Assembly (NCBI GenBank): GCA_017484225.1
Contig: JAFUTN010000008.1
Span: forward strand, 7,440-71,439
Length of the DNA stretch: 64,000 bases
Source: Alphaproteobacteria bacterium
GTDB taxonomy: Bacteria; Pseudomonadota; Alphaproteobacteria; RF32; CAG-239
Direction: 5' to 3'
Below the pieces are notes generated by a model. That model was not told the origin of the DNA, made no database searches, and saw nothing but the letters and a program-made list of their open reading frames with translations. The translations under genes and the position numbers were made by a program. Shown here piece by piece: positions 1,914-63,116 of the stretch; position 1 is the stretch's first letter, and every line of letters begins with the position of its first letter.

Positions 1914-3443
1914 TTATTTTTTCAAAAGCGAAGTTCCGGTCATTTCTTTCGGTTTTTCAATGCCGAGCAAATCCAACAGAGTAGGGGAAATGTCCGCCAA
2001 ACGTCCGTCTTTTAATCCCTTTACATTTTCCGGAGCATTATAAATAACGGCGCGAACTTTGCCGACAGTATGAGCGGTATACGGTTCACCTGTTTTTTCA
2101 TCAATCATTTTTTCCACATTTCCGTGGTCGGCTGTTACCAGTAAAACACCGTCAACTTCTTTAATGGCTTCCATTACGCGCCCTAAAGATTTATCAACGG
2201 CGGCAACGGCTTTCAGTGCGGCACTCATAATACCCGTATGTCCCACCATATCACCGTTGGCAAAATTGCAGATTATGGTATCAAATTTGCGGCTTTTGAT
2301 AGCATCAACCAAGGCATCTGTTACCTCGTAAACACTCATTTCCGGTTTCAAATCATAAGTAGCAACTTTCGGACTGTTAATCAAAATGCGCTCTTCTCCT
2401 TTGAACAGGCGTTCTTCTCCGCCGTTAAAGAAGAATGTAACGTGAGCGTATTTTTCCGTTTCGGCAATGCGAAGCTGCGTTAATCCGTGTTCGGCCACGA
2501 TTTCACCGTAAATATTGGTCAGTTCTTCCGGCGGAAATACGGTGTTCATAAAACGACGGTGGTCGGCAGAATATTCAGTCATACCGTTGCAAGACGAGAA
2601 TTTTATTACCTTGCGACGCTCAAATCCGCTAAATTCCGAATCGCCTAAAGCATACAAAATTTCACGAGCGCGATCGGCTCTGAAGTTTGCCATCATAACG
2701 GCATCACCGTCTGAACAACCCTGATAGGTGCCGATAACACAAGGAACCACAAACTCATCATTGACACCGGCGGCATAAGATGCGTCAATGGCCTCATCAA
2801 CGGTTGCATATCTTTTACCATCGGCACTGACAATATTATTATACGCCAATTCAACTCTGTCCCAGCGTTTGTCACGGTCCATGGCATAAAAACGACCGGA
2901 TAAAGTGGCAACGGAAACATTAGGCATATCTTTAAGCGAATCCGCAAATTCGCGAAGAAATCCCTTCGCAGATGTCGGAGGTGTGTCACGGCCGTCCAAA
3001 AAAGCATGAACATAGGTTTTAATTCCGCTGCGATTAAAGATATCGCACAATGCCGCAATATGCTTTTGGTGCGAGTGAACGCCGCCCGGTGACATCAAAC
3101 CCATTAAATGGCATGATTTTCCGCTCTTTTTCAAGTTATCAATTAAGGAAACAATAACCGGATTTTTTTCCAATGTATGGTTCTTTACGGACTCGTCAAT
3201 TTTTGGTAAGTCTTGCATAACAACGCGTCCGGCACCCAAATTCATGTGTCCTACTTCGGAGTTGCCCATTTGTCCTTCCGGCAAACCGACATCCAGTCCG
3301 GAAGTTTCTACAAAACAATGCGGACAGGTGTTTAAAAGCTCGTGCCAATGAGGAGTTTCTCCCTGTTCTATGGCGTTATCCGCCGTGATGTTTTTTCTAT
3401 AGCCCCAGCCGTCCAAAATAAGCAACATAACCGGTTTTTTCAT
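1914..3443 (-). CDS. gpmI: 2,3-bisphosphoglycerate-independent phosphoglycerate mutase
   Basis: Full-length iPGM motifs: LLILDGWG, GNSEVGHMNLGAGR, GGVHSH, ADHGN. Confidence 0.95.
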   Translation of the reverse strand: MKKPVMLLILDGWGYRKNITADNAIEQGETPHWHELLNTCPHCFVETSGLDVGLPEGQMGNSEVGHMNLGAGRVVMQDLPKIDESVKNHTLEKNPVIVSLIDNLKKSGKSCHLMGLMSPGGVHSHQKHIAALCDIFNRSGIKTYVHAFLDGRDTPPTSAKGFLREFADSLKDMPNVSVATLSGRFYAMDRDKRWDRVELAYNNIVSADGKRYATVDEAIDASYAAGVNDEFVVPCVIGTYQGCSDGDAVMMANFRADRAREILYALGDSEFSGFERRKVIKFSSCNGMTEYSADHRRFMNTVFPPEELTNIYGEIVAEHGLTQLRIAETEKYAHVTFFFNGGEERLFKGEERILINSPKVATYDLKPEMSVYEVTDALVDAIKSRKFDTIICNFANGDMVGHTGIMSAALKAVAAVDKSLGRVMEAIKEVDGVLLVTADHGNVEKMIDEKTGEPYTAHTVGKVRAVIYNAPENVKGLKDGRLADISPTLLDLLGIEKPKEMTGTSLLKK

Positions 3444-5347: not shown

Positions 5348-6121
5348 ATGCCAAAGTTAAAAACAAAGAAAAAATCCGCCGACGAAATTCGCAAAATCAA
5401 TGTGAAAGCATTGCTTAATGATACATTCTCCTATATAAGGGAAAACCCGCAATTTGTTCTTTGTTTGATTGTGGTTAACATGGTGTTTATGCTGTTTTTT
5501 AAGGCAATCGGAGGAATATCTAACCCATTGAGTATTTTGTGGTGTGCGGCATATTACCTTTTTTGGTGCTGGTTTTATCGTTACTACTACCATTTGAAAC
5601 CATATATTTTCAGTAAAACGGTATTTGGAAGTTTGGCCCCGTCAACAAAAGCTTTAGTGCTTATGGGATTGGTTTTTGCCGTTATTCTTGTGACACCGAT
5701 GGTTCCGTTGTTTGTGGGGTTTAATGATGTGTATCTTAACTACTATGAAAATTACATTTCCGCAGTTGAAAGTTTGTCAACGCAAAATGATATAGAGGCA
5801 TCATTTGCCGACATTGCCATAATATACGGTATTTTTGCGTTACTTTCTCCAATGTTGATATGTAAACCGTATATGGCATGGATTTCTTCATTGCGCGGTC
5901 ACAATGCCTCGTTTCGCAAAGCCGGAGACAAAACAAAAGGAAATTATCTTTCTTTTGCCATTATTTCGGCGTTATTGTTATATCCGGAGGCAGTATGTGA
6001 TAAACTTGATGCTATTTTGGGGGCCGATAAGTGGCTTAGTTATGTTTGCAGCACTTTGATTTTTGCCTACACAAACATTATTTTTGCCAAGATGTATGAC
6101 TTTTTCTATCTCAAACATTAG
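5348..6121 (+). CDS. Polytopic membrane protein, unknown function
   Basis: Several hydrophobic helices and a basic N-terminus. The start is 1 nt after the regulator stop, so the two are probably co-transcribed. Confidence 0.5.
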   Translation: MPKLKTKKKSADEIRKINVKALLNDTFSYIRENPQFVLCLIVVNMVFMLFFKAIGGISNPLSILWCAAYYLFWCWFYRYYYHLKPYIFSKTVFGSLAPSTKALVLMGLVFAVILVTPMVPLFVGFNDVYLNYYENYISAVESLSTQNDIEASFADIAIIYGIFALLSPMLICKPYMAWISSLRGHNASFRKAGDKTKGNYLSFAIISALLLYPEAVCDKLDAILGADKWLSYVCSTLIFAYTNIIFAKMYDFFYLKH

Positions 6122-6140
6122 TTGCTTCTACGAAATAATC

Positions 6141-6169
6141 TTTACAATCTCGGTTAGTTTTGTTACTAT
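6141..6169 (+). promoter_or_regulatory. Sigma70-like promoter of leader L1
   Basis: TTTACA (6141..6146), N17, TACTAT (6164..6169). The same architecture and position recur in the paralogous leaders L2 and L3. Confidence 0.6.
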
Positions 6170-6175
6170 TCCGAC

Positions 6176-6397
6176 AGAGTGAGCTAAAAACTCACTTCAG
6201 GGCGTGACAACCCTTTGCAAAAAATCAGTCGTTATAAAACGACTTTTAATTGTATGCCGATTTCGCATGTTGTTGTGTGCGGATGTCGGTGTTATAAGGC
6301 TTAAAGCACGAAATCGCCGAGCCGTTTTGATTTTTTGCACGGTTTGTCAACATCCGCCCACCATTTTAGGTGGCTTTTTTGTTAACTTTTTTAATTA
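6176..6397 (+). promoter_or_regulatory. Structured 5' leader RNA L1 (candidate attenuator / riboswitch-like element) of LRR paralog 1
   Basis: Aligns end to end with the leader of the 15220..15969 paralog, with compensatory stem changes, a 45-nt near-identical core (6279..6323) and a 3' terminator. The start is estimated from the promoter. Confidence 0.55.
6356..6380 (+). terminator. Intrinsic terminator inside leader L1
   Basis: GCCCACC-ATTTTA-GGTGGC followed by TTTTTT, located about 20-35 nt upstream of the candidate start codons. Confidence 0.55.
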
Positions 6398-50126: not shown

Positions 50127-50174
50127 TCAGATTATCAGCAACACTCCGGCAGTGAGTATCAAATAAAGCAAAAT

Positions 50175-50222
50175 AAAAAAGCACCGAGAAATCGGTGCAA
50201 TACAAAAATGGAGCGGATGAGG
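50175..50222 (-). repeat. Direct repeat copy 1: terminator hairpin plus the last 14 nt of tRNA-Gly
   Basis: 48 nt, identical to 50353..50400 except for one position (A/G at 50202 vs 50380). Contains GCACCG-N6-CGGTGC and TGGAGCGGATGAGG. Confidence 0.9.
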
Positions 50223-50347
50223 GCGCGAACGAGAGAGCAGATACAAATTATCTGCGAACAGTGAGCGGTGCCGAGTTTCCGCAAGCATAAACGCGGGAGC
50301 GTGAAAAGCGCGCGGAGAAAACTCAAACCGGTATTCACCTCATCCAC
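50209..50347 (-). ncRNA. Candidate 139-nt tRNA-like RNA: tRNA-Gly-type acceptor stem and UCCA end, with a GC-rich unrelated core
   Basis: The 5' GTGGATGAGG pairs with the 3' CCTCATCCGC, followed by TCCA. There are internal hairpins (GCAGAT/ATCTGC; GAGTTT/AAACTC) and an intrinsic terminator. No D, anticodon or T arm could be drawn. Confidence 0.35.
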
Positions 50348-50352
50348 AAATA

Positions 50353-50400
50353 AAAAAAGCACCGAGAAATCGGTGCAATGCAAAAATGGAGCGGATGAGG
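50353..50400 (-). repeat. Direct repeat copy 2: terminator of tRNA-Gly plus the tRNA 3' end
   Basis: See copy 1. The repeat period is 178 nt. Confidence 0.9.
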
Positions 50401-50460
50401 GGAATTGAACCCCCGTTATAAGCTTGGGAAGCTTCTATTCTACCATTGAATTACATCCGC
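50387..50460 (-). tRNA. tRNA-Gly (anticodon CCC), CCA encoded
   Basis: Minus strand: GCGGATG TA ATTC-AATGGTAGA-ATAG; anticodon loop TTCCCAA; T arm GGGGG-TTCAATT-CCCCT; CATCCGC TCCA. Confidence 0.9.
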
Positions 50461-50562: not shown

Positions 50563-50589
50563 TTGACATTCGCGCGGGGGGGGTAATGT
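50563..50589 (+). promoter_or_regulatory. Candidate promoter with a G8 tract in the spacer
   Basis: TTGACA (50563..50568), spacer TTCGCGC + GGGGGGGG (G8 at 50576..50583), TAATGT (50584..50589). The spacer is currently 15 nt. Confidence 0.45.
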
Positions 50590-50697
50590 AACTTTAGAAA
50601 TAATTTTTAGTTGTATACGCACATCACAATTTTTGATTGAGATTATGATGAGGGTTGCAATGCAGTGTTACTTGCAGTGTTAATCATTGGAAAACAG

Positions 50698-62183: not shown

Positions 62184-63116
62184 TTATTTTTCCAACGGAT
62201 GAGCCTTATGGTATTCTTTTTGCATGGTTTGTGTCTGCACGTCGGTATATCTTTGTGTTGTCATTAAAGATGCGTGTCCGAGCAGTTCCTGAATAGAGCG
62301 TAAGTCGGCACCATCGGCCAAAAGCTGAGTGGCAAAAGAATGGCGCAAAGCATGCGGAGTGAAGGTATCCGGCAAACCTAAATACAGGCGGATTTTTTCC
62401 ACCTGCCTTTGCACAACACGTGCGGTTATGCGCTCGCCTCGTGAGCCTAAAAACAGCGGTTCACCGATATTTTGTTTATAAGGGCATTTTTGCAAATATT
62501 CCGCTATGTTTTGCCAGATAATCGGTAACAACGGAACAATTCGCTCTTTATTGCCTTTACCTTTTACGCGCAAAGTTTCACTTTTTTCGTTGATATCGCC
62601 GATATTTAGGGATATTGCCTCGGAAATTCGCAGTCCGCATCCGTATAAAACGGTCAGAATTGCACGGTCACGTAATCCCTGCCATTCGTTTTTTGCCAAA
62701 TTCGGTGCTTCGTCCAAAACACTGAATGAATCGTCAACGTCTAAGGCTTTAGGTAAAACCTTCGGACGCCGCGGAGAAGTTATAACGGTTATGGCCTGAT
62801 TTTTTATGATATTGCTTCTGCTCAACCATTTGAAAAAATTTTTAACGGCGGAGATTTCTCGTCCCAATGATGATTTTTCTACATATTTTGCGGCACGGCG
62901 CGAAGTAAAACGGCGAAAATCGTAGACTTCCAAATTTTGTAAATCGTTCAGGCTTAAAGGTTTTTCGGAAATGGTTTGTAAAAATATGGCCAAATCACGG
63001 GAATAAGCATCTAAAGTATGTTCGGAATACAGCCGCTCTTTTGCAAGCCAATTCTGCCATTGTTTAATGGTTTGTTTGAGTTTTTCATCCGCGTTGAATA
63101 TTATTTCCGACTTCAA
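62184..63116 (-). CDS. Tyrosine recombinase, XerC/XerD family
   Basis: SAM-like N-terminal domain and catalytic residues in the C-terminal blocks (ILTVLYGCGLRISE, HALRHSFATQLL, LGHASLMTTQRYT). Confidence 0.85.
   Translation of the reverse strand: MKSEIIFNADEKLKQTIKQWQNWLAKERLYSEHTLDAYSRDLAIFLQTISEKPLSLNDLQNLEVYDFRRFTSRRAAKYVEKSSLGREISAVKNFFKWLSRSNIIKNQAITVITSPRRPKVLPKALDVDDSFSVLDEAPNLAKNEWQGLRDRAILTVLYGCGLRISEAISLNIGDINEKSETLRVKGKGNKERIVPLLPIIWQNIAEYLQKCPYKQNIGEPLFLGSRGERITARVVQRQVEKIRLYLGLPDTFTPHALRHSFATQLLADGADLRSIQELLGHASLMTTQRYTDVQTQTMQKEYHKAHPLEK

Follow-up and report, generated by a model that had tools for sequence, protein, structure and literature searches.

Predicted structured modules at minor tRNA gene ends of uncultured Alphaproteobacteria from gut and rumen, including a flipped copy next to tRNA-Gly(CCC)

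Comparison of the tRNA-Gly(CCC) locus in the window, that is, the whole 64,000-nucleotide stretch of DNA analyzed here, with related genomes revealed an undescribed family of predicted structured modules of ~130-150 nt that adjoin the ends of minor tRNA genes of uncultured Alphaproteobacteria from gut and rumen. As judged from sequence comparison, the element next to this tRNA belongs to the family and has its core inverted relative to its tRNA. Read along the tRNA strand, the canonical module consists of a degenerate inverted copy of the tRNA end, a core with the helices P2, P3, and P4, and an exact direct copy of the tRNA end. In Gly-type modules the direct copy is also followed by the tRNA's terminator, and the two tRNA-derived pieces are predicted to pair as P1. 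What had appeared to be a single odd locus becomes a family of more than 25 loci, with two tRNA contexts and with tandem and mixed arrays. The family is not contained in Rfam 15, and no description of such units was found in literature searches. For metatranscriptomics, it offers a well-defined target in those Alphaproteobacteria of the gut and rumen that lack cultured representatives.

The tRNA-Gly(CCC) locus of the window

The window carries an intact tRNA-Gly(CCC) gene on the minus strand (50387..50460), which was called by ARAGORN and matched the Rfam tRNA model (RF00005) with 66 bits. The last 15 nt of this tRNA, its trailer, and terminator 1 make up the proximal copy of a boundary repeat (50347..50401, minus strand), and the distal copy (50169..50223, minus strand) consists of 15 nt of the tRNA 3' end (CCCTCATCCGCTCCA), the trailer, and terminator 2. 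By repeat search and blastn, the two copies aligned over 55 nt without gaps at 95% identity and a spacing of 178 bp; a 49-nt core of the repeat (50175-50223 and 50353-50401) contains one mismatch (blastn E value of 1.8e-20). The terminator scan identified both minus-strand hairpins as intrinsic terminators (terminator 1, 50359..50376; terminator 2, 50181..50198), each with seven pairs and a run of six to seven T residues. Read from 50376 to 50359 and from 50198 to 50181, the hairpins are identical (GCACCGATTTCTCGGTGC plus T-run), and terminator 1 reads GCACCGA-TTTC-TCGGTGC followed by T7. The order proposed by the sequence-only reading, namely tRNA, terminator, a 139-nt segment, and a second terminator copy, was thereby confirmed, as was the duplication of the tRNA 3' end plus terminator with a single mismatch.

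The minus-strand insert (50347..50209) starts with GTGGATGAGG and finishes with CCTCATCCGCTCCA. Its first 15 nt (GTGGATGAGGTGAAT, 50347..50333) agree at 13 of 15 positions with the reverse complement of the T-stem/acceptor 3' strand of the tRNA, and a 13-nt inverted repeat at the insert start is 92% complementary to 50393-50405. The start of the insert, described previously as a near-copy of the tRNA 5' end, is not merely that; it is also antisense of the tRNA 3' end. According to the inverted repeat and the predicted fold, this degenerate inverted copy (50333..50347, minus strand) forms the 5' strand of the closing stem.

The core of the repeat module (50224..50332) lies on the plus strand, opposite to the tRNA, as delimited by blastn, alignment, and two covariance models, R1, which was built from 10 units, and R2, which was built from 22 sequences excluding the window. 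On the plus strand the core comprises the P3 hairpin (50237-50255, GCAGAT/ATCTGC), the junction GTGAGCGGTGC, and the long P4 hairpin (50273-50324, GAGTTT/AAACTC) with the apical motif ACGCGGGAGCG..AAGCGCGCGGAGAA. Both hairpins had been noticed before and were present in the predicted fold. The GC-rich nature of the interior was likewise borne out, with a GC content of 53.6% compared to 39.7% for the window, which places the interior in the top 0.9% of segments of the same size. The locus is flanked by chromosomal genes: LpxI, LpxB, and ComEC are located to one side, a GT2/WbqC sugar cluster to the other. A 74-aa open reading frame (ORF) spanning the element had no Pfam match.

Units in related species and in strains of the window's species

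A scan of one genome per species for the 3' half of tRNA-Gly(CCC) yielded 27 loci, all from uncultured gut or rumen Alphaproteobacteria except for a few metagenome-assembled genomes (MAGs) with evidently wrong labels; the source samples were animal and human gut metagenomes. Homologous units of ~150 nt follow tRNA-Gly(CCC) in 16 to 17 of the 27 species. A second tRNA 3' end lies 176 to 331 nt downstream in 17 of the 27, usually with the same terminator, and in many of these loci another unit begins thereafter. For one of them (L035, 331 nt), the match to the model is weak, and two further loci (L026 and L029) hold truncated unit remnants. Six more unit-bearing loci were obtained by a metagenome scan. 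The units start with decayed antisense of the tRNA 3' end (e.g., GAGGGGAATCGAACCC and TGGAGCAGAATAATATGGAGTGAATCGAACCCC) and end with TTCCCCTCATCYGCTCCA, and the direct tRNA-end copies of the family are 17 to 62 nt long. The antisense copy tracks the acceptor variant of the respective tRNA, with GCGGA in L029 and GCAGA in L031. In the first unit of L037 and L049, the copy of the tRNA 3' end reads CATCTGC and the tRNA itself CATCCGC, so the decoy copy is not always homogenized with the tRNA.

Loci with the same flank differ in copy number, with no unit in L006, one in L045, and two in L038. Mixed arrays combine the subtypes A and B, which have terminators of their own, in the order A then B (L021 and L031) or B then A (L039); the two subtypes share only about 18-20 nt. 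Unit 1 of L038 is a chimera of subtype A and subtype B parts, truncated units occur at array ends, and several contigs end exactly 252 nt past the tRNA. Such arrays break short-read assemblies at tRNA-Gly. A 55-aa ORF in L022-type units is not conserved. One unit was found in a 64%-GC organism (L047), where the tRNA end is repeated, the terminator is not, and the two terminators differ; to judge from this sequence, the family may extend beyond Alphaproteobacteria. The L047 unit (2484-2735, minus strand) has a length of 178 nt, follows tRNA-Gly(CCC), and matches the model weakly, with 20-23 bits.

The same core was found in a second tRNA context: in two species (L033 and L019), tandem copies of it separate tRNA-Ala(CGC) from its promoter region. 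These Ala-type units start with the first 20 nt of the tRNA (GGGGATATAGCTCAGTTGGG) and end with partial antisense of that piece, and the sense and antisense pieces pair as P1 in the predicted folds. R1 scored the Ala-type units at 72.7, 59.8, and 38.9 bits. Positions 1810-2222 of L033 and 4560-4923 of L019 contain 1.5 to 2 tandem core copies ahead of tRNA-Ala(CGC). In the structural model, the Ala-type P3, which is bordered by A- and T-runs, looks like a terminator within the tRNA leader. In about 500 kb of related loci, copies of the core were present only at the ends of tRNA-Gly(CCC) and tRNA-Ala(CGC), and the window contains a single one.

Strains of the window's species were collected as contigs carrying ComEC from the same 90% cluster. 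In the type A arrangement (window and L001), the tRNA strand reads tRNA, terminator, unit, terminator, and ComEC end. Type B (L009, L010, and L011) is like type A with an additional AT-rich module of ~750 bp containing two small ORFs. In type C (L013 to L015) the unit is missing and the deletion spans the terminator into the second ORF. Type D (L053 and L054) shows a single terminator followed by the sequence that comes after terminator 2 in type B, which represents a precise empty site. The empty site for which a comparison of relatives had been suggested is thus found in strains of the same species, and units are gained and lost exactly at the tRNA-end repeat. As the unit arrangement is shared by five independent assemblies and recurs in L001, L009, L010, and L011, it is not an assembly artifact; short-k assemblies (L003, L004, and L052) stop inside the repeat. 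At the contig end of L002 (6230-6315), a unit, a terminator, and the start of another unit are present where the tRNA would be expected, which suggests two tandem units, or else an assembly loop. Conspecific strains therefore hold zero, one, or possibly two units. Strains differ as to which copy of the repeat, proximal or distal, carries which form of a G/A variant, and interior polymorphism is restricted to one apical loop.

The AT-rich module of type B (about 4535-5300 in L009, L010, and L011) has its own TTGACA promoter and ORFs of 86 aa and 108 aa; the latter encodes a predicted membrane protein, and neither has a Pfam match. The module is bordered by direct repeats of ~24 nt (TTTTTTATAACAATGCCATCGTTT). 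It is missing in the window, where a remnant is located at 50127-50168, and was lost differently in types A, C, and D.

Structure, conservation, and orientation of the core

With R1, all Gly-type units were detected, as were the Ala-type units and L047. In an alignment of related sequences that was itself fitted to the model, paired cells amounted to 93.4%, compared to 74% for shuffled sequences and 30-52% with slid partners, and compensatory changes were found in 35 of 41 pairs, including all 12 pairs of P3. On the tRNA-sense strand of this model-fitted alignment, 58 G-U pairs stood against 18 A-C mismatches; one weak helix in close relatives accounts for almost half of this G-U excess, which leaves the strand test suggestive only. 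The minimum free energy of the sense strand was better by only ~4 kcal/mol on average. The core carries conserved unpaired purine motifs beside its hairpins, and the segment formed by tRNA 3' end, terminator, and inverted tRNA 3' end adopts a long hairpin in the predicted fold. Rfam returned only tRNAs, both at gathering scores (window and 15 loci) and in E-value mode (the locus, the L038 units, and the L033 leader). A tmRNA-like tag, a T-box, a glycine riboswitch, a hammerhead, a CsrA sponge, and Hfq motifs were considered and dropped on sequence inspection.

Within one genus-level group, identity between species was 91% for the units and 90% for the cores, compared to 79% for the upstream ComEC DNA and 69% for the variable upstream region. 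Unit identity correlates with host identity (r = 0.64). This tracking of host divergence is more readily reconciled with vertical descent under constraint than with a recent horizontal spread.

When both strands were searched with R2, the window gave a single match at 50202-50342 on the plus strand, with a modest score of 20.7 bits and a roughly calibrated E value of 4.4e-4. R1 matched 50211-50346 on the plus strand with 16.9 bits, and in blastn the window interior aligned with units of L019 and L030 in reverse orientation (E value of 0.004). The window core was missed by a sequence-only nhmmer profile from which the window had been left out, so that structure-aware models were needed. As expected of a family member, the window unit is bounded by a direct copy (50209-50223) and an inverted copy (50333-50347) of the tRNA end, which form a 10-bp stem, and it adjoins the tRNA end.

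All other members of the family are oriented in the same direction as their tRNA, whereas the window core is on the plus strand and its tRNA on the minus strand. Recombination between the inverted tRNA-end copies likely flipped it. Since models that do not include the window find it on the plus strand only, a minus-strand RNA would be antisense of the family sequence. The acceptor-like stem and free UCCA of the minus strand are a by-product of this orientation, and the family-sense sequence is located on the plus strand downstream of ComEC. The flipped copy is probably inactive or differently expressed.

Possible origin and role of the modules

We tentatively favor the view that the units are tRNA-anchored non-coding RNA modules which are amplified, lost, and flipped via the tRNA-end repeats. 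Recombination between direct copies would add or remove whole units and could thus lead to zero, one, two, or more units and to mixed arrays. The canonical core is predicted to be a non-coding RNA from the tRNA's own transcription unit, which at tRNA-Ala would be transcribed within the leader and at tRNA-Gly via terminator read-through. No convincing promoter was seen for the tRNA-Gly units, and as they are located behind a good terminator, their expression would need read-through. The core RNA might be released by tRNA end-processing, as are spacer-derived small RNAs (sRNAs). An example of a regulatory RNA derived from a tRNA spacer is 3'ETS-leuZ of E. coli, which is mentioned in PMC6191717. 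The likeness lies in a non-coding segment within or just after a tRNA transcription unit, the release of which would need end-processing, and the Ala-type units between promoter and tRNA share it. To our knowledge, the known tRNA-spacer RNAs are short, single-copy, and devoid of copies of the tRNA's own end, whereas the family presented here is characterized by a length of 130-150 nt, a predicted multi-helix fold, sense and antisense tRNA-end caps, and a tandem arrangement.

The main rival assumes a DNA cassette, that is, a non-autonomous integrative unit that inserts at the tRNA end and is moved in trans by a recombinase encoded elsewhere; we regard it as possible, though unlikely. The conserved covarying hairpins could equally well serve in single-stranded DNA, as in integron attC. 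By the same analogy, the palindrome of tRNA end, terminator, and inverted tRNA end may conceivably act as the recombination site, and, with similar reservation, the tRNA end and terminator brought along by the unit might keep the tRNA gene functional after insertion. Consistent with a cassette, the unit boundaries lie exactly at CCA, the repeat has its left edge within the T-loop, a classical crossover position, precise empty sites exist, one core is found on two different tRNA ends, and the window core is inverted. The order of the subtypes is swapped between species although so little sequence is shared, and for swapped order together with two tRNA ends site-specific insertion would be a simpler explanation than homologous recombination over 18-20 nt. 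Moreover, L047 repeats the tRNA 3' end only and has differing terminators, as a foreign insert would.

On the other hand, tblastn with E. coli XerD as the only query, a search of limited sensitivity, yielded no tyrosine recombinase closer than about 4 kb to any array at ~35 loci; about 8 kb were inspected per related locus. The only match was 12 kb away from the element in the window. This XerC/XerD-like tyrosine recombinase gene (62196-63068, minus strand; Pfam Phage_integrase, 141 bits) probably encodes the housekeeping Xer enzyme. Clustering of ORFs across loci returned synteny genes and spurious frames only. Viral contigs contained neither arrays nor the module 5' end, and the 14 matches to the apical motif in these contigs were close to the number estimated for chance, with none confirmed by the model. 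In a blastn search of phage records only the tRNA was matched; the sole match reaching past the tRNA (MT835913) was discarded as an unrelated GC-rich tRNA-Gly locus. Two further points speak against a cassette: unit identity follows host divergence instead of being uniformly high, and a multi-hairpin core with conserved unpaired purines exceeds the needs of a recombination site.

In integron gene cassettes, the attC boundary consists of an imperfect palindrome, and recombination takes place on its folded single-stranded form. Like these cassettes, the family forms arrays at one fixed site with varying order, a predicted palindromic boundary, and structure conserved beyond sequence, but as far as the search with XerD showed it is without adjacent intI/attI, and it is without ORFs, its palindrome derives from the end of the neighboring tRNA, and its core has several hairpins. 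With MITEs and REPINs it shares small size, lack of genes, terminal inverted repeats, and a long hairpin-rich fold; however, in the window and the ~500 kb of related loci the family is not dispersed, and its flanking "duplication" is a tRNA end of 17-62 nt rather than a short target-site duplication.

A bolder proposal, and in our estimation a rather unlikely one, is that of a new genetic unit in which the tRNA-end copy and the inverted copy serve as address and clamp, either in a cassette system or in an RNA controlling maturation. In that case the antisense segment would be guide-like and specify the tRNA-Gly 3' end or the tRNA-Ala 5' end, and the sense copy would restore or mimic the tRNA end. 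The units would then be guide-directed gene-less cassettes, or their closing helix would compete with the cloverleaf and control the maturation of minor tRNAs.

The units might also be a non-functional, self-perpetuating structured repeat that arose from an old inverted-plus-direct duplication of tRNA ends, which we consider distinctly unlikely; hairpin-bounded DNA of this kind would expand, contract, and homogenize by slippage, unequal crossing-over, and gene conversion. Such processes would be in line with the differing copy number between strains, the G/A variant swapped between proximal and distal copies, the chimeric unit 1 of L038, and the truncated units at array ends. They would not account for a core that is better conserved across species than neighboring coding DNA, nor for the finding that, despite their divergence, the Gly-type and Ala-type lineages have both retained these helices by means of compensatory changes.

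The sequence-only reading had offered two interpretations. Its view of the insert as structured and tied to the tRNA, and of the duplicated tRNA 3' end as a unit boundary, was retained, whereas neither interpretation was supported. The first of them, a functional tRNA-derived sRNA of 139 nt from the minus strand (50347..50209), with RNase P, the CCA-adding enzyme, or GlyRS acting on its acceptor-like stem, discriminator U, and CCA, is now very unlikely. The proposed acceptor-like closing stem is indeed present in the predicted fold of this segment, with 10 bp and UCCA free, and the fold is very stable (-53.7 kcal/mol, z = -5.5). The segment shares the strand of the tRNA, is bordered by two terminators, and is kept in every unit-bearing strain of the species. 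However, the predicted fold of the plus strand is just as good (-52.4 kcal/mol, z = -5.0), so that the fold cannot indicate the strand, and the family models match the plus strand only. An acceptor-like stem of 7-10 bp with free UCCA is missing from all canonical members, whose 3' tail is single-stranded or paired through CCA. Pair 2:71 of the stem is U-G, whereas the tRNA has C-G, and conspecific strains without the unit exist. No D, anticodon, or T arms were found, as had been noted before: ARAGORN and Rfam called only 50387-50460 as tRNA and gave nothing for 50209-50347, neither at the gathering score nor at an E value of ≤10 in Rfam. A tmRNA was rejected, with no call by ARAGORN and an Rfam tmRNA_permuted score of 13.8 bits (gathering score of 47; E value of 1.7). 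The likeness to tmRNA, including the two-piece alphaproteobacterial form, and to the bacterial Y RNA YrlA is confined to paired ends followed by NCCA on the minus strand of the window; the window element differs by having no T-arm, D-arm, or tag ORF, and such a stem is not characteristic of the family. When a repeat enclosed by tRNA-end copies is flipped, it can thus mimic an acceptor stem, and stability alone cannot assign the strand.

The second interpretation concerns integrative elements at tRNA genes, which generate attL/attR duplications, undergo tandem accretion, and leave integrase-less CIME-type remnants. The family shares with them a direct repeat of the tRNA 3' end starting from the T-loop, a replacement 3' end, arrays, and empty-site strains, but its units are smaller than 200 bp, gene-less, covarying across species, and also present at the 5' end of another tRNA, and the tblastn search with XerD found no integrase near the arrays of ~35 loci. 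That the 123 nt between the repeats are a decayed attL/attR remnant of a larger island or prophage once integrated at tRNA-Gly is hardly tenable and already largely refuted: the direct repeat, the seemingly foreign GC content, and the conspecific empty sites would agree with a scar, but no relative carries an island or any larger element between the repeats, the relatives instead have homologous units of similar size (130-331 nt), often in tandem, that covary and are better conserved than flanking genes, tRNA-Ala carries the same core at its 5' end, and no integrase remnants were found among the window genes or, with XerD in tblastn, near the arrays.

Two observations were made in the vicinity of the units. 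Downstream of tRNA-Gly in relatives, a segment of ~150 bp bordered by inverted repeats (GTGTGTAAAAATAACGGTCGTTTTTTTTACACAC) is inverted between two Hadza gut contigs (L006, about 6040-6215; L007, about 6020-6195), and from its sequence it looks like an invertible promoter switch ahead of a 780-aa ORF. In the window, a G8 tract lies between TTGACA and TAATGT boxes (50563-50589, plus strand), ~80 nt upstream of the GT2 gene, which starts at 50665. The length of this tract differs between conspecific strains, with G8 in the window, G9 in L001, L010, and L011, G6 in L009, and an interrupted tract in L013 to L015, and by its sequence it looks like the spacer of a phase-variable promoter for the sugar-modification cluster.
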